A DNA stretch of 64,000 nucleotides from Eledone cirrhosa (lineage: Eukaryota). The stretch is taken from the NCBI GenBank assembly GCA_964016885.1, contig OZ024743.1:279124001-279188000 (forward strand), in the 5' to 3' direction. A program made the translations under genes and the position numbers. The notes under the pieces are model-generated. The model did no database searches and was not told the DNA's origin. It saw only the letters and a program-made list of their open reading frames with translations. Position 1 is the first letter of the stretch. Every line of letters starts with the position of its first letter. Shown piece by piece: positions 13,015-56,056 of the stretch.

Positions 13015-13073
<59 letters not shown>

Positions 13074-13295
13074 TAAGTCAAAGATGTACATCCATATATG
13101 TATACTGAAATACTAGTATGTATATGAATACACACACGTATACATATGTAGATGTACCAAGTTTTTTTTTCACTGATCACTTTACTGTGAGTGGCCAGCT
13201 ATTCTGTATGTAAACACACAGACAAACCGGTTTTTAGAGTCATACTGGTTTTTGAGGAAACACCTTTCCTCTATTCTCCAGAAAGCCAGACAAGG

Positions 13296-13340
13296 AATAT
13301 TGAACTAGTTTCGTTGTTGTTACAACTCATCAGCAATATT
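13296..13340 (-). ncRNA. Minimal type-I hammerhead ribozyme, array copy 1
   Basis: Minus strand reads AATATTG-CTGATGA-GTTGT(AACA)ACAAC-GAAA-CTAG-TT-CAATATT: 7-bp stem I, intact core, 5-bp stem II, palindromic ACTAGT stem III, GUU site. Confidence 0.9.
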
Positions 13341-13765
13341 TACCTATCTTCCGGCCTCTCTAGAGAATCGTAAAAGCACATATCGCTATATGCTTTTTCT
13401 ATGAAAATTAGTAGTGGGCAGACCAACTTGCATAGAGTGTGAGTAAGTACCGGTTCAACGGAGACGATAAAAACAAATAACGAAACGAAATTAAATTTCG
13501 TTTCGTTTGTAACTCACTTTTGTATGACTGACGCTCAAACAATTAAGTCAAAGATGTACATCCATATATGTATACTGAAATACTAGTATGTATATGAATA
13601 CACACACGTATACATATGTAGATGTACCAAGTTTTTTTTTCACTGATCACTTTACTGTGAGTGGCCAGCTATTCTGTATGTAAACACACAGACAAACCGG
13701 TTTTTAGAGTCATACTGGTTTTTGAGGAAACACCTTTCCTCTATTCTCCAGAAAGCCAGACAAGG

Positions 13766-13810
13766 AATATTGAACTAGTTTCGTTGTTGTTACAACTCAT
13801 CAGCAATATT
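13766..13810 (-). ncRNA. Minimal type-I hammerhead ribozyme, array copy 2
   Basis: Identical to 13296-13340. Confidence 0.9.
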
Positions 13811-14235
13811 TACCTATCTTCCGGCCTCTCTAGAGAATCGTAAAAGCACATATCGCTATATGCTTTTTCTATGAAAATTAGTAGTGGGCAGACCAACTTG
13901 CATAGAGTGTGAGTAAGTACCGGTTCAACGGAGACGATAAAAACAAATAACGAAACGAAATTAAATTTCGTTTCGTTTGTAACTCACTTTTGTATGACTG
14001 ACGCTCAAACAATTAAGTCAAAGATGTACATCCATATATGTATACTGAAATACTAGTATGTATATGAATACACACACGTATACATATGTAGATGTACCAA
14101 GTTTTTTTTTCACTGATCACTTTACTGTGAGTGGCCAGCTATTCTGTATGTAAACACACAGACAAACCGGTTTTTAGAGTCATACTGGTTTTTGAGGAAA
14201 CACCTTTCCTCTATTCTCCAGAAAGCCAGACAAGG

Positions 14236-14280
14236 AATATTGAACTAGTTTCGTTGTTGTTACAACTCATCAGCAATATT
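14236..14280 (-). ncRNA. Minimal type-I hammerhead ribozyme, array copy 3
   Basis: Identical to 13296-13340. Confidence 0.9.
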
Positions 14281-14706
14281 TACCTATCTTCCGGCCTCTC
14301 TAGAGAATCGTAAAAGCACATATCGCTATATGCTTTTTCTATGAAAATTAGTAGTGGGCAGACCAACTTGCATAGAGTGTGAGTAAGTACCGGTTCAACG
14401 GAGACGATAAAAACAAATAACGAAACGAAATTAAATTTCGTTTCGTTTGTAACTCACTTTTGTATGACTGACGCTCAAACAATTAAGTCAAAGATGTACA
14501 TCCATATATGTATACTGAAATACTAGTATGTATATGAATACACACACGTATACATATGTAGATGTACCAAGTTTTTTTTTTCACTGATCACTTTACTGTG
14601 AGTGGCCAGCTATTCTGTATGTAAACACACAGACAAACCGGTTTTTAGAGTCATACTGGTTTTTGAGGAAACACCTTTCCTCTATTCTCCAGAAAGCCAG
14701 ACAAGG

Positions 14707-14751
14707 AATATTGAACTAGTTTCGTTGTTGTTACAACTCATCAGCAATATT
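14707..14751 (-). ncRNA. Minimal type-I hammerhead ribozyme, array copy 4
   Basis: Identical to 13296-13340. Confidence 0.9.
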
Positions 14752-15176
14752 TACCTATCTTCCGGCCTCTCTAGAGAATCGTAAAAGCACATATCGCTAT
14801 ATGCTTTTTCTATGAAAATTAGTAGTGGGCAGACCAACTTGCATAGAGTGTGAGTAAGTACCGGTTCAACGGAGACGATAAAAACAAATAACGAAACGAA
14901 ATTAAATTTCGTTTCGTTTGTAACTCACTTTTGTATGACTGACGCTCAAACAATTAAGTCAAAGATGTACATCCATATATGTATACTGAAATACTAGTAT
15001 GTATATGAATACACACACGTATACATATGTAGATGTACCAAGTTTTTTTTTCACTGATCACTTTACTGTGAGTGGCCAGCTATTCTGTATGTAAACACAC
15101 AGACAAACCGGTTTTTAGAGTCATACTGGTTTTTGAGGAAACACCTTTCCTCTATTCTCCAGAAAGCCAGACAAGG

Positions 15177-15221
15177 AATATTGAACTAGTTTCGTTGTTG
15201 TTACAACTCATCAGCAATATT
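15177..15221 (-). ncRNA. Minimal type-I hammerhead ribozyme, array copy 5
   Basis: Identical to 13296-13340. Confidence 0.9.
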
Positions 15222-15417
15222 TACCTATCTTCCGGCCTCTCTAGAGAATCGTAAAAGCACATATCGCTATATGCTTTTTCTTTGTTTTTATCGTCTCCGT
15301 TGAACCGGTACTTACTCACACTCTATGCAAGTTGGTCTGCCCACTACTAATTTTCATAGAAAAAGCATATAGCGATATGTGCTTTTACGATTCTCTAGAG
15401 AGGCCGGAAGATAGGTA

Positions 15418-15462
15418 AATATTGCTGATGAGTTGTAACAACAACGAAACTAGTTCAATATT
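15418..15462 (+). ncRNA. Minimal type-I hammerhead ribozyme, inverted copy 6
   Basis: AATATTGCTGATGAGTTGTAACAACAACGAAACTAGTTCAATATT on the + strand. Confidence 0.9.
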
Positions 15463-35544: not shown

Positions 35545-35850
35545 GATTGAGATACTGAGCTTATATCATGTAGACAAACATTGGGTGCTTTGAAGATCAA
35601 GAGAGAAATATTTCAGGGAGACAGTCTTTCACATTCACTGTTTGTATTGTGTATGATTCCACTTTCATTAGTATTGTGAAAGTCAAAGGCTGGTTACGGG
35701 TCTATAAGACGTGAGTTTAAGATAAACCGATTGCTTTTCATGGATGACCTAAAACTTTATCTGAAATCCTATGAATATATTGATTCCCTTGTACAGACAG
35801 TCATACATTCAGTATAAAAATGGAATTTGGCATAAAAGGTGTGGGGTGAG
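35545..35850 (+). mobile_element. R4/Dong-like non-LTR RT core fragment
   Basis: IKREIFQGDSLSHSLFVLCMIPLSLVL*KSKAGY...INRLLFMDDLKLY. Confidence 0.85.
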
Positions 35851-35857
35851 ACAGAAA

Positions 35858-36385
35858 TGATAAGATGAAACTGTCCCTGAAAAGTTTGTTGGCGGTAGCG
35901 AACGCGTACATCGCGTCCGTCTTCTACTACTACCATCGTGCCTTGCCTTCGTTCGCACCTCACCAAATTGGAACGCCTGCTATTCAACTTCTTGTGGAAA
36001 GGACAGATTCTATTGAGGAGGCGCTCCATCTGCTGCCAGCACCCACTATACGGAGGGCCGAGCATCCCTTCGTTGATGATTTGTGGTGGGCATGTCCGCC
36101 GATCCTCCTGGAGCGTCTCTGGTCTTCGACGAAATCGTACTGGCCAGTCTATACCGGAGGAATTTCGAGCTGGGTATTTTGGATAACTTCCAAAAGTCCC
36201 TCTCTTGGCAATTGCTACCTGGGGGTACTACTGCCGGTTCGAGATAAACTCTACAGACCCGAAACTGCAGTCAGACGGACCAATCAGAGATGCGTGCAAA
36301 GCGACGAAACCCTCTGTAGGCACTCATTTAGTGTCCATGTATTCCTGACATGTGAGGGTATATCGAACAGCTGCTATCACACTTT
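35858..36385 (+). mobile_element. Tx1/L1-clade ORF2 fragment with internal deletion
   Basis: LERLLFNFLWKG...QHPLYGGPSIP joined to DNFQKS...LPVRDKLYR..RCVQSDET; same family as 46781-47413. Confidence 0.8.
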
Positions 36386-37794
36386 TAATGATCACACAAT
36401 AATTATTGCTGCTGGTAGCTTACATATTGACATAGCATTTTTGTTGAAATAGTGAAGCTATCTGTGTGATAAAACATCTTTTTCTGATAGAATGCTTGAT
36501 AACTATTTAAATATTATAGTAAATATAAATATTTAAATCAAATGTTATAGCGAGTATTTAACTTTATAGGAATAGATTACAGGAGGTTCAACTATTTTGG
36601 CATGATCTTGTAATGGAATTAGTGAAATCGCAGAACAGTTCATTAGATAAATCACATTTTCATCATTTTGTAGAGTTGCCTCAATAATAAATATTTTCAC
36701 TTAAAGAGTTCCTGTTAAACATCACATTTCAATTTAGTAGGTATTTAGTTATCTCCCTTTACAAGTCTTCATTGCATAGTTGATTCCAAGATTTGTTTAA
36801 GCTACTTGTTATCTTTCCTAAGCTTTTCGTGTAATGAGTCACATCTTTTTATCTCTATTCTCACATTCTAATCCTTCTTTCTACTTTATTCTCGACATCA
36901 ATCCTATTTAAACCGACGACACATGCTACATACGGTATTAACATTACCTGACTTTTCACTTATTTCATAAGCAAGTAAGGGAAACTTTGCCTGCTCACTC
37001 ATTTTACTAGAAACAACAACGGAATCTCCAAATTTTCCCCCAATAACAAACTAACATCTTATATAAAGAAAATACTGGTAACTGCTATCCATTACACGCA
37101 AATCGAGTGGAACTTTTATTTATCGATCACGAAAGTATGAAAGGCAAATACATTTGACTTCGGTTGTATTTAAACTTAGTGTGAAGAGATTAGAAACAAT
37201 TACCAAGGCATTTAATGCGACCTTCTGATTACAATTCGCCACCTATATTATTTTCAGCTTCCACGTATGTTATACTACACCATTGTGTAAACATAACTGT
37301 ATTTGAGTTTCACGTCGATAACATGCTTAAACATTAGGGATAGTTGTTATCTACATTAATTTCATGTCTGATTTATTTCCTAGTCTGTAAATTAGCAAAG
37401 GGATATCCGTCTCTGGCTTTCTGTGCTATGAGTTTAAACCACAACGAGATCAACTTGACCTTTTCATCCCCTCGTGTCTACAATTTCAATACTGAAATAG
37501 AGTTTCTCTTTTTCTCTCCCGCCTCACTCTATCGCTATTGTTACACCTGGCTCGTGACGAGCTCTACCATGTTTAAATACACAAAGAAAGCCGCATTTCG
37601 CGATCGTGCACCAACGACTCCATCAAGGGTTAAGGGGCCAATGATAAAGATTATTTATTTTCTAACATTTAACGGTGATAAGTGTTAAAAATTACCTTCT
37701 CCAACTTCAGTCCTTATTTCAAATACACCTTGCCATCTTAAAAATATGCTGTCCACTGGATAACGTAGTCACCAATATATAAGATTATTATTTT

Positions 37795-37972: not shown

Positions 37973-40453
37973 TTAATGTTATATATTTTTACATGTGGAC
38001 TCGGTGAATTTGTTTATGCATTTCAATTTTTAGTGTGTGTTTTCATATAGCCTGTATAAATATGTTGAAAATTATTGATGTATCAATATAATATCCATGA
38101 AGAGATTTTTAGAACATACTGAAACGCTTCGCATGCTATTAGGTCAGCATCGCAAATAAATGAATTACGATTTAGCATAAATTTTATTTCAAAAATCTGT
38201 AACCTATAATTTGGTGTAGTATCTAACATAGTAAACACTTTAAACAACACTACAGGTAATATTGTCAACATAATTTCTTTCACATCAGATATATTTGCAT
38301 TAATAATCTTAAGAATTTTATCTCAGTTTTCACCAAAAGAAATCGTAAATAACCCAATTCCGCCAAACATTCAAGACAGTATTAACTTATGCCATGTCAA
38401 TGGCAAATACCTCGATAAGTAGTTTGTGCTTTGTGCCAGTTAAGTTGAATGAAAACAATGAATAACTTTATTTACGTCCAGCGGAACATTCCATTAAATA
38501 AAGGTTTACACAGCACAGATATTCATTAAGCATTCAGTGAAAGAAAACACTAAATCTATTGCAGCATGTTCCCAAACTAAAAGATAAATATGCTATGAAA
38601 TTACATATATTGATATTTGCTAAACCATAATTAGATAGTTTAAGGTTTTAAAACTTTAACAAGCCAAATATATTTTTTGTTTTCTTTTAAATAAATACTC
38701 CTTTGGTAATGTCATCAAAATAAGTACCTCGTAAGGATTTTTAACTTGAACGCAAGCGAGATACATTTTTCTTTAAAGGTGTATTTGCCACTCAAAACAA
38801 TCCCGAATCAGCATGATTCTTGATTAACGCTATGTGGCCGCAAACATTTATGGCATATCAGATATATAATTTATTTATTTTCATTTGTTTTTTCACATGA
38901 AGCTGATTGTAACAACTTCACTGCTTTGCAATTTTTCCATGTAATATATCGCACATATAATATTTTTGGCAATACAAAAAAAAATCATTATAATGGTTTT
39001 ACAGACTGAGCGAAAGCTTTGAGATACCTGTCCTGGCACTTGCTTTTTCTGAGCTAAATTTGCTTTACATATTTCTTCTAACAGTAAAATAAAGAGAAGG
39101 ATGTAACCAACCTTCGCATCCGTACATATTGCGCACCAGTCGTATCCATCGAATATATTCCTGTGTTTATCACATACCTAATTATCATCTGGACATGTTA
39201 TATCTATGATACAAGATAGTTTGCGTTCGTTGCAATTATCATATCAGATTTCCTGTGATCCATCTCATTGTCACACTATATCCCAAATCACACAGGATCT
39301 TTGCAATAACATTTTCAATAATGTCCTTGGGTTTATATTCGTACCTGATTTTTGCTCTATCAAGTCCTCTCTTGCTGCAAACTGCCTAGTTCTCTATTTT
39401 GACTACAATGCCGTGACGCCTCTTATATTCTTTCTGAGCTAGTCGTGCATGTCTATTGGTAATATGCCATACAGTTTCTCAACTATCACCACAAATTCTA
39501 CATTTATCACTTTCTAGCGTGTGGTTATTTGTGTTGGTACGAGTATATGTCAAATTTCAAATTTTCGCAATTCTTGTTAAGGCAACTAGTTAAATATATA
39601 CGAACCCACAACACAAACACACACACACACACAGACACACTTATATGTATATAATATATATACATATACCGGCACACATACACACACACACATATATATA
39701 TATTATATATATACATATACATGTACAAAGGCACACGCACACTCACACGCACACATATATATATACACATATATATATGTATATATATGCCCATACACCT
39801 ATCATCAGCTATATCTATTACACAACATTGCTTCTGTACGACGCCCGTTCTTTGATGTATGCCGCTTTGCCGCTTTTATATACTCGTGGTTCTTGTTTTC
39901 CGTTTATTCGTTAGCAATATCATTTTACTTTTATTCTTTTATTTTTGTGTTTCATGCTTCTGCTTTTTATTAGTATTCATATTGTTTATCTTGTTGGTTT
40001 AACTGCAATATCAGATAGCACCCGTCAACTTATCTCTTACATTCCTATTCCTATCACCCTTTTCATTTTAACAGACATCTCCACTTCTGTTCGGAAATCT
40101 GTGAAACTAAATAATCCTGGGTTGACATTTCAACAGGGAATTGTGTGCGTGCGGGTATGCGACTATATTTTAAGTGTGTGTGGCTATACTGTGCGTACAT
40201 GTGTGTGAGTGTTCGCGTGAGAGAGAGAGAGAGAAGCTTATGACTTCATGTGTCTGCGAGATTGATAGAGGGTGATGATAAATTGTCTGTTTACACACAT
40301 ACACACACACACACACACACACGCACATACACGCACACACACACACACACGCACATACACGCGCACACACACACACGCACACACACAACTCCCCCCCCCA
40401 CACAAATATATATATATATATATAAATATTGTTTTAGAGTAGTGACAGTCTCA

Positions 40454-40496
40454 CTTTGATAAGTATCAAAAATTATGAAACAGAGCTCTGTCAGCT
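40454..40496 (+). ncRNA. Hammerhead U3-A8 variant, copy 1 (stems I and II damaged)
   Basis: CT-TTGATAA-GTAT(CAAAAA)TTAT-GAAA-CAGAGCTCTG-TC-AGCT. Confidence 0.6.
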
Positions 40497-40771
40497 TTAT
40501 CTCCCCTGTTTGCTGAACATTTAAAGTAAGTGAGACTGTCACTACTCTAAAACAATAGCGTAAGGTCTTCGAAATGCTTTTAATTAAGCATACAGTGTAT
40601 AGCAAAATACATTATATATACATTCATATGTATATCGTTATTTCAGAACACCAATTTTAATTTTCAATTTCTGCTTGACCGGCAACCGCTCTGTATAATC
40701 AGTTCCTGATTATTACTAGAATTCTATAAGAATCAAACATTCATGATTTTCAGCAAACAGGTGGAGTAGTT

Positions 40772-40816
40772 AGCTTTGATAAGTACCAAACAGTACGAAA
40801 CAGAGCTCTGTCAGCT
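40772..40816 (+). ncRNA. Hammerhead U3-A8 variant, copy 2 (intact)
   Basis: AGCT-TTGATAA-GTAC(CAAACA)GTAC-GAAA-CAGAGCTCTG-TC-AGCT; 12-nt palindromic stem III; GUC site. Confidence 0.85.
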
Positions 40817-41096
40817 TTATCTCCCCTGTTTGCTTAAAATTTAAACTAAGTGAGACTGTCCCTACTCTAAAACAATAGCGTAAGGTCTTCGAAATGATTT
40901 TAATTAAGCATACAGTGTATTGCAAAATACACTATATTTACATTCATATATATATCGCTATTTCAGAACACCAATTTTAATTTTCAATTTCTGCTTGACC
41001 GGCAACCGCTCTCTGTATAATCAGTTCCTGATTATTACTAGCATTCTATAAGAATCAAACATTCATGATTTCAGCAAATAGGTGGAGTAGTTAGTT

Positions 41097-41141
41097 AGCT
41101 TTGATAAGTACCAAAAAGTACGAAACAGAGGTCTGTAAGCT
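41097..41141 (+). ncRNA. Hammerhead U3-A8 variant, copy 3
   Basis: AGCT-TTGATAA-GTAC(CAAAAA)GTAC-GAAA-CAGAGGTCTG-TA-AGCT. Confidence 0.8.
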
Positions 41142-41266
41142 TTATCTCCCCTGTTTGCTGAAAATTTAAAGTAAGTGAGACTATCACTACTCTAAAACAA
41201 TAACGTAAGGTCTTCGAAATGCTTTTAGTTAAGCATACAGTGTATTGCAAAATACACTATATATAC

Positions 41267-41310
<44 letters not shown>

Positions 41311-42193: not shown

Positions 42194-42358
42194 GTTTTAG
42201 GACTGGTGCTCTGAAATAGCGATGTTTACATAAATGTATGATTAGTACATTTGACAATAAACCGTATGTCTAATTAAAAACATTTAGAAGACCATACACT
42301 ATCAATTTTAAAGTAGTGACTATATCACTTACTTCTTTTCGGTGAAATAAGGGAGAGT

Positions 42359-42400
42359 AGCTGACAATCTGTTTCACACTGGTTGGCGTTCATGAGGGCC
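42359..42400 (-). ncRNA. Degenerate hammerhead (core CTCATGA)
   Basis: Minus strand reads GGCC-CTCATGA-ACGC(CAACCA)GTGT-GAAA-CAGATTG-TC-AGCT. Confidence 0.55.
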
Positions 42401-42750
42401 ACACACTCCCCTGTTTCCGCCGAAAATTATAGAAGCTCGATTCTTATAGAATTCCAGTAATAATCAGGAGCTGATTACACAGAGCGGTTGCCGGCAAACA
42501 TTAGGTATTAGTATTGGGGCTTCGAAATACCGATGTATACATGAATGTATGTATATATTTGGCAATATACCGTATGTTTTGCCAAATATACTATACACAC
42601 ATTCATGTATACATCGGTATTTCAGGGCCCCAATCCTAATACCTAATTTTTGAGGACCGGCAATCGCTCTGTATAACCAGCTCCTGATTATTACTGGAAT
42701 TCTATAAGAATCTAGCTTCTATAATTTCCGGCGGAAGCAGGGGATTTCGT

Positions 42751-42792
42751 GGCTCTGATGAACGCCAACCAGCGTGAAACAGACTGTCAGCT
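42751..42792 (+). ncRNA. Minimal type-I hammerhead, canonical core
   Basis: GGCT-CTGATGA-ACGC(CAACCA)GCGT-GAAA-CAGACTG-TC-AGCT. Confidence 0.85.
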
Positions 42793-42937
42793 TCTCTCCC
42801 TTCTTTCGTCGAAAAGAAGTAAGTGACATAATCACTACTTTAAAACCGATAGCGTATGGTCTTCTAAATGTTTTTAATTAAACATACGGTATATTGCCAA
42901 ATAAAGTATACATATATTCATCCACACACACACACAT

Positions 42938-44899: not shown

Positions 44900-44948
44900 T
44901 TAAGCCAAATATGTCAAATTTGGCTTCGTTTATTATAAATTAAAAATT

Positions 44949-45003
44949 ACTGCTATATATATTTCGGTGACAGCCATCATTGGCTGTGACCTCATCAGGC
45001 AGT
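44949..45003 (-). ncRNA. Minimal type-I hammerhead
   Basis: Minus strand reads ACTGC-CTGATGA-GGTCACAGCCA(ATGA)TGGCTGTCACC-GAAA-TATATA-TA-GCAGT. Confidence 0.88.
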
Positions 45004-45100
45004 CCGAATTGGTATGGAAAAGACAGGTACACATGTTGTTGAAGTGTATTTTACTCCGTCAATACATACATGCGTACCTGTCTTTTCCACACCAATTCGG

Positions 45101-45155
45101 AATGCCTGAAGAGGTCACAGCCAATGATGGCTGTCACCGAAATATATATCGTCGT
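45101..45155 (+). ncRNA. Hammerhead with decayed stem I
   Basis: AATGC-CTGAAGA-GGTCACAGCCA(ATGA)TGGCTGTCACC-GAAA-TATATA-TC-GTCGT. Confidence 0.65.
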
Positions 45156-45874
45156 AATTTTTAATTTATAATAAACCAAGCCTAATTTTACATATTTGAC
45201 TTAATTATTTTACATTACTTCGCAGTAAACAAACCAACCTTCGTACTTCGTCGAGTGCTCCAATCTGCATACTTGGGTGTCGGTAAACAACCAACATATA
45301 CTCAATATATAATATATACAGTATATATATTGTTCAAGGAGACAACAAACAGAGGTATAAAAATGTTATTACTTTTACGCTTTATATTGGAAAGAGGAAA
45401 GAAAGTTCGACGTGTCTGGCCCTTCTTCAAGAGTACAAAATAGAAACAGGATTACAATGGAGAAACAGAAAAAGGTCCAATAAACAAAACGAAAATGAAG
45501 CGGGAAAACAAGAGAACCATAAGGTTGTCTTGGTAACAAGTAAGAACGCAAAGTGGAGTGTGTGTGTAATCGTATCGTTATATATGTGAGTGTAAGTGTA
45601 AGTTTAAATGTGTGTGATGTTAAAGGTAAAATGTGTAAAGTAACAAAGATAGTGATGTATGTGCATATCCATGTGTTAGAGGTAGTGGACATGTATGTGT
45701 GAGTGAATGTAAGTTTCAATGTGTGTACTGTTTATGTACGTTGAAATAATTTTGTGTGCGTGTATAAAGTTTCGCTAGTGTAGCGTATGACCGTTAGAAG
45801 AGTGAATTAGTATGTGTGAGTATATATATAATCAACACCATAAACACAGTGCTAGTATATCTAAGAACTGACTA

Positions 45875-45930
45875 ACTGCCTGATGAGGTCATAGCCACTC
45901 AATGGCTATCATCGAAATATATATAGCAGT
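45875..45930 (+). ncRNA. Minimal type-I hammerhead, covarying paralog of 44949-45003
   Basis: ACTGC-CTGATGA-GGTCATAGCCA(CTCAA)TGGCTATCATC-GAAA-TATATA-TA-GCAGT, followed by AATAAA. Confidence 0.85.
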
Positions 45931-46007
45931 AAATAAAGGAATATGAGTTCATGCAAGTGACTTATGTTTCGTCAATATATACATATATATATATACATAT
46001 GTACTTG

Positions 46008-46671: not shown

Positions 46672-47413
46672 ATATTTCTTTATTAGCCACAGGGGCACAA
46701 CAGAAGGGGACAAATACAAAGGGGGAAGTTTATATACAATAAAAACGTGTAAAATGTTATCACAAATGGAATTTAAAAAGTTAGTCGATTTTCCCCAATA
46801 GAGGGAGACAGTTTATATGGGTAACACATACCCCCGAAAAAAAATGTGCAACCCTCATCTCCAGGAGTACGAAGAGCTTGTACTCTTTTCCTCTCCTCCT
46901 CCTTTTCCTCAACCTACAGGCTGATATTCTCGCCACTTTCACCCACCTTTCATAAAACTTGCTGGGGTACAGCACCTCTCTCTCCCTCCTGATTCTTCTT
47001 CCAAAGTGGTATTCGAAAAAAAGAATCAGTTGTTGGCCGGAGAGAAAGGTGACTGACCTCAGCCCTTTCAACCTTGTCCACCATACAACCTCTTTCGCCA
47101 TAGCTATCACACAAAGGAAAACCGCCTCTCCTTCGTTTTTGAAGGAGGGTGGCGGTTTGATCATGACAATGGACTCGGTGGTCAACTGGATTGGTCCCAC
47201 CCGCGACAATAGTCGTTCTACATAGCCCCACAGGTCAGTGACGCCCGGGCAGTGTATGAATGCGTGCGCGACGGTTTCTTCGTCTCGCACGCACCTCGGA
47301 CAGATCTTTTTTGCAGGGTCCCTGCCCGGGCGCCCATGTCTGTAGAGCTTGTCTCGAACTGGTAGAGCTCCTCGGTAGCACTGCCAGGCCAGGGACTTTT
47401 GGAAGTTGTCCAT
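46672..47413 (-). mobile_element. 5'-truncated Tx1/L1-clade LINE with 3' UTR, flanked by (GATA)n
   Basis: ORF 46781-47413 WQCYRGALPVRDKL..CPRC...ETVAHAFIHCP (zf-RVT); AATAAA then a (TATC)n tail on the minus strand. Confidence 0.88.
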
Positions 47414-47435
47414 AGATAGATAGATAGATAGATAG

Positions 47436-47502
<67 letters not shown>

Positions 47503-50500
47503 AAACGTACTAGACGTGTATATGAAGTCATAAACAATATATGTATAATATCCAACACACACGTGACACTGTGTTTTAAGCCGCGCTCTTGTCACAGAAA
47601 CCCCAATATTCCTTTTTGAACTCAACAGTTACAGGATTGTTCGCCGGAATTTAAACTCTCAATAGAAGAAGAAGAAGAAGAAGAAGAAGAAGAAGAAGAA
47701 GAAGAAGAAGAAGAAGAAGAAGAATATAAGGATGATGATGATGATGATGATGGTCATAAAGAGAACGAATTGCTGTTGTCTGTAAATATGCATGTTGGCA
47801 CGGGAGAGAAATCACACTGGTTCATATATTATGTAATGTGTGTTTATTTGCACGTAAGTGTGTTTATAGGTAAGTTGTGTGTGTGTGTGCAAGTATCTAT
47901 GTATGGATACATTTATATATGCATGTAATTGTAGAAAAAAGTATAGTCGTTAATTTCGTGTCACTGCATGGAAGTTATTGCTAAAAGAAACAAAAAAGAA
48001 TAATGATAAAAATCATGTTCGGACAGGGATGAACGCTTTGTGGAGGTCAATCGTAACATCTTTGCTCTCATCAAAATTCCTCGGGACAAAAGACAACTTA
48101 TGTGTATGATAGAAAAATAGATTTGCAGTCAATCTACTTTTTTTATTAATGTTTTCTCCTTGTAATAGATATTGTTATGTACTTTGAAGTTGTTTGGAAT
48201 CAGGTTTGTATTGGAGATTTGTTATCGTCCCCATCAGTTTAGATAAATATAAGAGCGATGAAGTAGATTTTGACATAGTTGGGTGTGGTTGTTGTAATTC
48301 TTTTCTCATTAATAGGCACAGAACTAAACTGTAAGGTTTAAGAAAGTAGAGAATAGAGACGAATATTGAAAATATGTTATGCATGCATCAGTGACGCATG
48401 GGTTAAACTAGGAGACTGAAACATTTAGAAATAGAGATTAGCACTTTCGGTACCATATTTCAAATGAAATGTATTGCCTATCATTTTCAAATATTTTTGA
48501 AAATATTTAAGATTATAGAACGATATAGTAATATAAATATGTGTTTCATTACTAAGTCGATGTTTTATCATATCATAAGCTTTTTAAATGAATATAAATT
48601 TTAAAAAGTAAGCTTAATTTTAGAGAATCAACAGTCGTTTAAGGCGTCTGGTATCAAAGGGTTTAAAAAGGACTAAGTGATTGAACGATTGAGAAAAATC
48701 GAGGGAAAAAGAAAGGAGAGAGTTAGAGGGAGAGAGGGGCATTATAAGATTGCGCAAGAGAGAAAGTGAAAGAAAGTGAACATTTTGAATCAAGAAAGAT
48801 TGCATGAAATGTTCGACTTATATTGAGTATTGTCCGCAAAAGAATTAGGTTCAATAACTTATGCTGGATTGTACCATCAATAAGATTTGATCGATTTTTC
48901 TTTTCTGTATATGAGTCATTGCTGTTATTGTTGGTGGTGTTCTTTTGGAAGTCGGTGCTGCTGTTACTTCTGTTGTGTGTACCCACTTTAGCATTGATTA
49001 ACGGCATTCCAGACGTGAATTTCTCTTATTCTTTTCAAATATTACCTCTATTAAATAAGGTTGTTACTAACTTAACAGTTGATTTTCATGCAGGTGTTGT
49101 CTACGACATATATATATTCTCCTAGAAATTTTCCTTGTCTACACTGACCAATGGACATTCTTGTACATTTACTTAGTGATTCTCTCATTACTACATCAGC
49201 AAGAATGATGATGTCTACACTTCGCTGGTGAGGCCAGAATAAGACAGAAATACGTCAGAAGATATCTTCCATACTTGCAGAAATAATTAAAATGATATTA
49301 GTCATTTACTATTTTTGTTCTTTCCTCCTCAAATAATTATTTCTACATTTGCATGATCCTGGCATTAAATATGTTAACCCAACTGAACTGCATACACAAT
49401 TTATCTATGAATACACTAACCAATGTGTTCTTTTTTGTCAGTATGGTGGGATTTGAGGAACATTTCTAATAGTTTAAGTTCCTATGCAAAGTATCTACTC
49501 GTAGGCTCATATTTCAAAATTCAATGGCTGGCGGTATGCTGTTGTTACGAGTTTTTTCAAGTTTTAGAGCAAGCTTTTTTACTTTATTTTGTTGTTGTAT
49601 ATCGCAATGGTAGCTCTGATTGATAACTTCTAAATGTATTCCAGCCATGACCAGTTCATATTTATGTATAAGCGACTGAAATGTCTAGCGCGCCATTTAT
49701 TTATTTGTAGTTGTGTGTTTGCGAATCACCTGGTATTTTTTTTTTATCAGATACGAGATAACAAAGATAACACTTCGTTAGCCAGTTGTTGCGTCATTGT
49801 TGTTGAAATATTCATCTTTCCATAGTATATGTATTCCGCATATTTGAAGCTTAGTGTTTATCAATGCATTAAAACTACCGAGGGAGCTTCTATGAAGGTG
49901 TTCGACAGCTGAAATAGTAGCCAAATCTAACTGAAAGTAGGTTTCATGTATTACAGGAAACATGGAAAAAGGGTCACTGCTAGAATGGCTTTGGTAATAA
50001 GTGTCAACGTTAAGGTAAAACAACAATAAGTATACAGTATTCCTGCTGTATAAAGTATATATGAAAAAATCAGTGTTCAATCGTTTGACTTGATTTCTAG
50101 ACAACTAACCACATCTCCCTCAAATCACACCCCATTCTCGTGGGAAAAGTAGATACACTAGACAATGTAGTCCCTGGGAACGAAATGTAGTGTTAGGCGA
50201 TGCAAGAGCACCTTTGATCGTAGGTTTGATCAATTTGTGCTGACCTAAGCCTGAACAGCAACATTCCTATAGTAATTATATTTCAATGAATGAATTAGCA
50301 TTGTCAAAATGTGTTGTTTTTTCCTTAGCCACAGGTCAGCTCTTCGCGAGTAGCTTTATCATCAACGGACCTCTTGTCGTGGCAATACAAATCTTTATTT
50401 TAATGCTGTTGATTACGCTACCAAATATGACATTCTCTTTCTTTATTATGAGAGGAGACAATGGTTTGAGGATGATGTGCCTGCTATTCTGAGTAAATTG

Positions 50501-55250: not shown

Positions 55251-56056
55251 GGCCAAGCCAGCATAAAAGCTTCCTATGAAAATTAGGCTAATCACCCTGT
55301 ATACATAAGCGTTAAAACTATATCTTTGTGTCTTATTTGAGTTACAGTATGAAGCGAGGAAAGTGGTGCATATCCATTGACAACATCCGCACAATTGTCG
55401 GTTTCTTCACCCTGATTCTGCTGGAACAAAGTAGGGTGCGACAGCCACAAGCATTAAATTCACAGCTAAAGTCTTTCAAAACTTTATTCGTAAATATTTC
55501 GTATAATATTCGATATCCAAACTTTACATACATAAATGTTGGAGCTATGTTGGAGCAAACACATTAATTCTATTTCTTGTTCAGGCAGAGCCATCTTAAA
55601 AACTCCGTATGCAAATGGAGCTAATCAACCTATGTACATAGGCGTTAAAGCTGTACGTTTGTGGCAAGGAAAAGAGTGCGAAACCTTGTGAACGGGAAAA
55701 CTGCCAGAATAGCTGTCCGTTGCTTCCCCCCTCACTTGCTTTTGATGGAACAAGGAAGATGGCACCAGCCACTACCTTTAACATTCATAACTAAAGGATT
55801 TTGAATATTTATTCGTAAACATATCGTATATTTAGAAATGATGCTAAAATGATGCCTGTATTATACAATTATACACACACATATAAATATTCATAAAAAT
55901 ATATATGATAAAATCAAGGGAAAGCAAATAATTTTATATGTTCTGGCTTGTTAATTTATTAACTTGCCATTGAACCACACTGGCATACGGTCAGACTATT
56001 CTTGTATCCCTATGTGTACTATTTACATGTAGGAACACATACTTTTATTATAAATA

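Follow-up and report, generated by a model that had tools for sequence, protein, structure and literature searches.

The window, meaning the whole stretch of 64,000 nucleotides (nt) that was analysed, is AT-rich, microsatellite-rich DNA of Eledone cirrhosa (contig OZ024743.1, positions 279,124,001 to 279,188,000) from an assembly that totals 3.0 Gb. Between position 40427 and approximately 41280 it carries a 320-bp tandem repeat of 2.6 units with 93% identity, which has (TA)n on either flank and holds three hammerhead ribozyme motifs. The cores of all three motifs read TTGATAA and begin at positions 40456, 40776, and 41101, thus reproducing the spacings of 320 and 325 bp given in a preliminary description of this DNA. 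They carry the pair U3-A8 in place of the C3-G8 pair of the canonical core CTGATGA, with hammerhead numbering according to the convention of the papers cited below. No open reading frame (ORF) of 150 or more amino acids was found over the element. The element belongs to a dispersed family that we call family A, and this letter, like the letters B to F used for other families, is a label of this analysis. The features of the locus are listed below.

40406..40424, no strand: (TA)n run bordering the element on the left, which likely belongs to the insertion target given its sequence and the family's 3′ ends at TA runs
40427..40456, minus strand: 30-nt inverted piece, the reverse complement of 40528-40557, an inverted 5′ segment of the type made by Penelope-like elements (PLEs), as in family loci with both orientations
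40454..40492, plus strand: copy 1, a 5′-truncated hammerhead with U3-A8 core at 40456-40462 and C17 at 40492
40493..40812, plus strand: first full unit, 320 nt, bounded by two predicted cleavage sites
40748..40838, plus strand: copy 2, an intact type I hammerhead by descriptor match and folding, with core 40776-40782, helix II 40783-40796, GAAA 40797-40800, palindromic helix III 40800-40811, and C17 at 40812
40813..41137, plus strand: second full unit, 325 nt
41068..41165, plus strand: copy 3 hammerhead, with U3-A8 core at 41101-41107, loop III AGGU, and A17 at 41137
41138..41280, plus strand: 3′ partial unit, which stops 143 nt past the cleavage site, where 3′ ends of the family fall most often
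41258..41306, no strand: (TA)n run at the right border

Hammerhead motifs of the array

Copies 2 and 3 contain the complete type I core (3-UGAN-8-A, GAAA, and NUH, with three helices and the open end at helix I), whereas copy 1 does not. In copy 2, a long, bulged helix I (AGCT/AGCT) is combined with helix II (GTAC/GTAC) and the cleavage site U16.1-C17, and helix I carries an internal loop approximately 4 bp from the core. Copy 3 departs from this arrangement in that A17 replaces C17 and the palindrome of loop III is broken. Stems I to III and the GAAA element are kept in both copies, as had been described. Copy 1 starts 2 nt upstream of position 3, has a mismatched helix II, and is without the 5′ strand of helix I; it could serve only as the 3′ half of a pair of partners. 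Fold z values are −5.4 for copy 2, −6.4 for copy 3, and −1.15 for copy 1, which does not fold. The first full unit is non-coding, has a GC content of approximately 34%, and is strongly self-paired (fold z = −5.1).

The heptamer TTGATAA is not enriched in the window (16 matches versus 29.2 expected from shuffling). The descriptor context around these cores is not due to chance. A type I hammerhead descriptor that left positions 3, 7, and 8 free gave 11 matches in the window, of which two are copies 2 and 3 and the other nine are C3-G8 motifs belonging to other families. A comparable scan of 1.2 Mb of the genome, taken at round coordinates chosen arbitrarily, yielded 22 forward matches versus one in the reversed sequence. 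Nothing in the window matched Rfam at the gathering score; with the Hammerhead_HH9 model, copy 2 scores 17.9 bits, copy 3 scores 19.8 bits, and a C3-G8 sister at 42737 scores 26 bits, with a cut-off of 52. A score below this cut-off is a limit of the library, not a defining biochemical feature. That searches restricted to CUGANGA would miss the array follows from how they are built, but the neighbouring C3-G8 copy escapes Rfam as well.

Comparative sequence analysis supports the predicted helices. In an alignment of 19 copies from four families (A, B, C, and F), 96.2% of cells are paired and 16 of the 28 pairs have changed on both sides, compared to 36-46% paired and 2-4 such pairs in slid-partner controls on the same alignment, although these counts use related sequences, which inflates them, and the slid control is not a probability. 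The pair formed by positions 3 and 8 is CG in 11 of the 19 copies, UA in eight, and unpaired in none. The earlier proposal that the U3-A8 core is compensatory is borne out.

Origin and recurrence of the U3-A8 pair

Family A is dispersed on many contigs. There are 2,846 first-look candidates, 40 of which were scored, and the best 30 of these 40, with the window itself excluded, have 93-96% identity. U3-A8 is fixed in the family: it is present in 850 of 868 ribozymes found by exact pattern, where counts are lower bounds, and the reversed-pattern control gave none. Variants with another base at position 3 number seven and those with another base at position 8 number 12, with one match in both lists. 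This shared match has C3-G8 and is a member of a sister family, and the other 17 are single mismatches.

Three related families carry C3-G8. Family C is approximately 90% identical to family A (33 of 338 columns differ, 24 of them on A's own branch), and a hand count of the first 100 of its 281 matches gave 89 C3-G8, 11 mismatches, and no U3-A8. Family B, with 3,115 candidates, has 37 CTGATGA cores and no U3-A8 among 44 anchored matches in 30 loci. Family F has C3-G8, is approximately 74% identical to A, and is represented by one locus (L156:9176-9998, minus strand; G000:C1:245009176-245009998). We built a tree from 29 natural copies, comprising the first nine of each set of length-filtered copies (29 for A, 31 for B, and 30 for C) and two of family F. 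Family A forms a single clade (100/100) and is grouped with C (100/100), with B and F outside; B and C are each not resolved as a single clade, and F is a long branch. Because the C3-G8 families B and F fall outside the A + C group, C3-G8 is the ancestral state, and both substitutions occurred on the branch leading to A. Within the core, only positions 3, 8, and N7 changed on this branch and the remaining positions were kept. The three U3-A8 copies at the locus derive from one family-wide master, not from three events.

The part of the unit outside the ribozyme is conserved over families A, B, C, and F, which, on the basis of sequence conservation, suggests a shared recognition or promoter element. 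In family F, the units form a 310-bp tandem, are identical, and carry a hammerhead that is built differently. A possible old and distant relative of these units lies in the window at 55395-55523 (E 0.2) and 55671-55840 (E 0.002), where weak profile matches accompany a degenerate hammerhead-like stretch. Family B is present near the array as an inverted pair (42204-42921) whose junction forms a long hairpin (approximately 42500-42650) with sub-threshold Rfam microRNA matches. These are most likely chance matches to the inverted repeat. The members of this pair, and representatives of two further families discussed next, are as follows.

42575..42921, plus strand: family B insertion, separate from the array and approximately 74% identical to A, whose canonical C3-G8 hammerhead has its core at 42755
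42204..42579, minus strand: inverted, decayed family B copy with core CTCATGA
L142:460-6429, minus strand, and L114: family D (locations include G000:C4:320000000-320009999)
L238:7070, plus strand, and L239:3265 and 8180, minus strand: family E (locations include G000:C1:36491000-36510999)

Families D and E also have U3-A8 and share no detectable DNA similarity with families A, B, C, and F. Family E gave 6,379 pattern matches, and the first 100 are all UUGAAAA and identical. Two of its ribozymes, 4.9 kb apart (L239:3265 and 8180, minus strand), flank a PLE-type coding region, and upstream of another ribozyme is a 770-aa ORF with RVT_1 and GIY-YIG matches above Pfam cut-offs. With near-identical copies and a near-intact ORF for reverse transcriptase (RT) and GIY-YIG domains, family E is a PLE family of very young age. 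Cleavage falls at U16.1-A17, such that U3 could pair with A17 instead of A8 in an apparent built-in conflict. Family D gave 243 matches, and the first 100 all have U3-A8, with N7 being U in 93, A in six, and G in one. Its ribozymes are located in 740-bp direct repeats on either side of a 714-aa ORF fragment that has PLE-like motifs and a weak GIY-YIG match only (E 0.057). The proteins of D and E share 22% identity over a stretch of 245 residues. No C3-G8 relatives of D and E were found near 24 PLE ORF fragments, and the two switches are not polarised because no close C3-G8 relative was found. Families A, D, and E together give at least 7,400 U3-A8 pattern matches in this genome (850 + 6,379 + 243), all of a kind missed by canonical descriptors, which indicates how large the gap in annotation is.

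Sorted by their 3-8 pair, the 22 matches of the 1.2-Mb census comprise 15 C-G, five U-A, and two U-U, and the two U-U matches are single and weakly paired. Neither this census nor the family listings showed a multi-copy family in which a 3-8 mismatch was fixed. Several other hammerhead families were observed. At 13069-15281 on the minus strand of the window, a 470-bp tandem of 4.7 units with 99% identity holds five canonical C3-G8 hammerheads with a U-U cleavage site, and an inverted copy is present at 15425 on the plus strand. Because of this identity and seven more matches in the 1.2-Mb sample, the family is judged to be young and abundant. Another canonical family, with a long helix II and a TATATA loop III, occurs on both strands at 44940-45150 and 45870-45935, with a decayed third copy near 45100. 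At four sampled loci (L139, L162, L180, and L197), the C3-G8 hammerhead of an abundant PLE family lies approximately 200-250 nt past the end of the ORF, with one additional base following A9 and a helix III of 1 bp. The window also contains ORF fragments at 35850-36452 (plus strand) and 46781-47509 (minus strand) that, from an impression of their translations, we take to resemble the C-terminal zinc-binding region of a protein of LINE-type retrotransposons (long interspersed nuclear elements).

The double change had been attributed to selection for cleavage, with a lack of covariation of positions 3 and 8 across family copies named as one result that would refute this. No such covariation exists among the 868 family A matches, where all departures from U3-A8 within the family are the 17 single mismatches, but it does exist between families. 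Moreover, departures from the column majority amount to 2.3% in the 11 core columns, compared to a background of 2.4%, in a set of 182 fragments from 46 loci that includes loci chosen for variants at position 3 or 8. Selection acting on single insertions is rejected since their core decay equals background, and the inserted copies appear from this comparison to decay neutrally. The earlier claim therefore holds in that an intact 3-8 pair is probably selected, but it was placed at the wrong level, given one family-wide change. Because of the 3-8 covariation between families and the presence of U3-A8 in two unrelated PLE families, selection for cleavage likely acts on source elements and not on this locus. 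Inside family A, helix II pair 10.2-11.2 is T-A in 79 copies, C-G in 14, T-G in one, and unpaired in six (n = 100). Contigs from three runs of one sample repeat the T-to-C and A-to-G variants of helix II and have no variant at position 3 or 8 among the matches listed; the assembly may have been made from this very sample, which does not count as independent support.

Family A as a candidate retrozyme and its alternatives

The insertion pattern of family A was characterized in 45 loci. These contain 0.7-4.3 units each, with 320-nt units arranged head to tail up to approximately four units, unrelated flanks, and no common upstream ORF. Both orientations are present in 28 of the loci. Among 81 fragment 3′ ends, 65 adjoin a TA run, and the ends cluster at 140-144 nt (37 ends) and 165-174 nt (26 ends) past the cleavage site. 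The element has features of retrozymes without long terminal repeats (non-LTR retrozymes), namely short tandem units of 320 and 325 nt, where approximately 170-400 nt is typical, low GC content, no coding sequence, and dispersed multiple copies. Copies 2 and 3 supply the two units called for in a recent preprint (bioRxiv 10.64898/2026.07.22.740005). The partial tandem, 5′ truncation, inverted 5′ copy, and AT-rich or microsatellite target are those of non-autonomous elements mobilised by PLEs. The arrangement of an autonomous PLE, with an RT and GIY-YIG ORF between the repeats, is not present, as the element has no ORF and its units are directly head to tail. Family A is therefore most likely a non-LTR retrozyme that is moved by a PLE protein.

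A single ribozyme subtype is carried by 35 of 37 loci. Rare variants are shared by 8.4% between units of one locus versus 0.3% between loci, and divergence is 4.75% between units within a locus versus 5.9% between loci. One subtype and shared rare variants per locus are expected if each insertion was copied from one circle or from a homogeneous array. At two loci, the whole family A insertion is repeated together with its flanks, with a spacing of 4.46 kb at L062 (G000:C2:103049500-103058500) and as units of approximately 500 bp at L081. These repeats reflect either DNA-level duplication after insertion or an assembly artefact.

The genome is rich in PLE ORF fragments. A profile of the A/B/C/F unit matched none of the loci of families D and E, and all of its strong matches in 134 loci and the window are units of the A/B/C/F type. 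Two same-strand pairs of family A ribozymes, 3.8 and 4.5 kb apart, were considered as the ends of an autonomous element and rejected, since they are separate or duplicated insertions with no PLE ORF between them. PLE fragments near four family A loci (L004, L030, L065, and L115) were likewise rejected as partners because they belong to different PLE families and look coincidental.

Folding predictions made with ViennaRNA point to a ribozyme that would act in pairs. For a single family A ribozyme, the preferred structure is predicted to be a misfold that base-pairs helix III with U3-U4-G5 and with the 5′ strand of helix I, and the cleavage-competent fold lies 3.6-4.1 kcal/mol above it. Helix III consists of 4 bp within a perfect 12-nt palindrome, with a predicted energy of −20.1 kcal/mol for the duplex and −1.8 for the hairpin. 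The double hammerhead is predicted to beat either monomer fold in six of seven natural tandem pairs and to reach a probability of 0.01-0.26 in five of the seven, and a fraction of no more than 0.003 of the circular monomer is predicted to be competent. The tandem pair in the window itself has a predicted double-hammerhead probability of 0.03; in its minimum-energy fold, the partner of U3 in copy 2 is A17 of copy 3, a pairing that can be likened to the C3-G17 trap of PMC3884650. Dimer-on and circle-off behaviour, as predicted here for family A, follows the logic described in PMC4209133.

We consider it probable that the locus is an aged insertion of 2.6 units of a U3-A8 retrozyme, with a predicted double-hammerhead mode of cleavage, that was copied by a PLE into (TA)n. 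In the proposed mechanism, a tandem locus would be transcribed, and adjacent ribozymes would pair via the 12-nt helix III palindrome and cleave after C17 to free a 320-nt monomer. This monomer would then circularise, and pairing of U3-U4-G5 with CAG of helix III would guard it against re-cutting. Finally, an RT/GIY-YIG protein of a PLE would nick AT-rich DNA and copy more than one unit from internal sites approximately 143 and 170 nt past the cut, leaving 5′-truncated tandems with inverted 5′ pieces. The changes of C3 to U and G8 to A would have persisted because continued spread was limited to source elements whose 3-8 pair was intact.

Several observations weigh against this reading. An autonomous PLE with DNA similarity to family A was not found by profile in the approximately 1.3 Mb sampled (0.04% of the genome), and two subtypes occur together at locus L030, an outcome at odds with a single circular template. 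In two of the seven tandem pairs, the predicted double-hammerhead probability is below 0.0001. Only one of nine Xenopus retrozyme dimers cleaved in vitro (bioRxiv 10.64898/2026.07.22.740005, a preprint), and PLE insertion in vitro did not need hammerhead cleavage (PMC11167929). The switch in A is a single event made of C-to-T and G-to-A changes, which are common in an AT-rich genome, and this case was picked for them. The 11 core columns carry no shared variants, which is not significant alone as 22 of 320 columns carry one.

One alternative is that the units are the pseudo-LTR of an autonomous PLE yet to be found, such that the copies are its 5′-truncated ends and not a retrozyme with its own circular RNA cycle. 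The ribozymes of the other two U3-A8 families are indeed pseudo-LTR sequences that flank PLE ORFs, and retrozymes are reported as pLTR-derived (bioRxiv 10.64898/2026.07.22.740005). Against this stand the head-to-tail units with unrelated flanks and no common upstream ORF, and the distant ribozyme pairs that lack a PLE ORF between them. We regard this origin as quite improbable, and it would leave the argument about the ribozyme and U3-A8 unchanged. The ribozyme might instead be weak or dead, with U3-A8 having arisen by drift through two common transitions and the PLE protein recognising other parts of the RNA. Background-rate decay of the core in inserted copies fits such a scenario, as do the eight of nine retrozyme dimers that failed to cleave and the PLE insertion that proceeds without cleavage. 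However, 24 changes accumulated on A's branch and yet, within the core, only the free N7 and a complementary pair were altered. Helix II covaries inside family A, and three unrelated families have a paired U3-A8 while no multi-copy family has a fixed 3-8 mismatch. Drift of this kind is therefore held to be very improbable. Almost no credence is given to a local satellite that grew by tandem duplication of DNA with no RNA intermediate. Although units are alike within a locus both in divergence and in rare variants, the copies are dispersed over contigs, stop at fixed 3′ positions next to TA runs, vary at the 5′ end, and include inverted 5′ pieces; moreover, inverted copies share rare variants as direct ones do (8.2% versus 8.5%). 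The satellite origin is already largely refuted by this dispersed, polar insertion pattern.

A distinct proposal concerns why U3-A8 arose. The pair might be a folding fix reached at least three times, which in A would weaken the misfold, raise the competent fraction approximately a hundredfold, and retune the dimer-on/circle-off switch. When C3-G8 is put into A, the predicted gap widens to 6.5-7.0 kcal/mol, the double-hammerhead probability falls in all seven pairs, and the competent fraction of the circle falls approximately a hundredfold in six of seven. Family C, with C3-G8, has a predicted gap of 1.3 kcal/mol, and its loop III breaks the complementarity. In A, U3 may thus make up for the palindromic loop. 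However, family B keeps C3-G8 at a gap of 8.35 kcal/mol and is equally abundant, which rules out misfold relief as a general rule, and the predicted effect is smaller in D and E (approximately 1.7 kcal/mol). We therefore find the folding-fix proposal doubtful.

Relationship to known hammerheads and retrozymes

The novelty implied for the U3-A8 core did not survive comparison with the literature. C3-G8 covaries to U3-A8 in several natural hammerheads that were shown to be active in vitro (PMC3088659), and U3-A8 also occurs in PLE hammerheads of Schistosoma, with approximately 1,300 matches after a change of descriptor (PMC4209133). The locus is thus an aged insertion and a good example of a published core swap, not a new kind of thing, and by itself adds little. 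Searches of open-access main texts found no paper that describes a U3-A8 tandem retrozyme family or a resolved switch from C3-G8 to U3-A8 between sister families, although more examples of U3-A8 may be given in the supplements of PMC4209133 and PMC7229834.

Partial tandems, 5′ truncation, inverted 5′ copies, and microsatellite targets are described for PLEs (PMC8557442), as are nicking of both strands of AT-rich DNA and reverse transcription that starts inside the RNA (PMC11167929). Family A resembles these endonuclease-bearing PLEs in the form of its insertions, the proposed internal start of reverse transcription, and the hammerhead in its repeat, but it encodes no protein. With metazoan non-LTR retrozymes (PMC7229834; bioRxiv 10.64898/2026.07.22.740005), it shares non-coding units of approximately 300 nt in short tandems, low GC content, one type I hammerhead per unit, a strongly self-paired monomer, and coexisting PLEs. 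It differs in its U3-A8 pair and in a helix III of 4 bp, compared to the 1-2 bp described. The minimal hammerheads of the Cercyon PLE of Schistosoma mansoni (PMC4209133) exhibit the same core covariation and are likewise PLE-linked and of type I. The Cercyon motifs are without helix III, heterogeneous, and mostly single, whereas family A has full helices, approximately 94% identity, and a tandem arrangement. Finally, the natural U3-A8 hammerheads of PMC3088659 show the same covariation of positions 3 and 8, but here both states are found in sister families. Families A and C therefore offer a natural experiment, in which approximately 90% identical sisters differ in the 3-8 pair with the direction of change resolved, for testing whether U3-A8 is neutral, costly, or helpful in its native sequence context.

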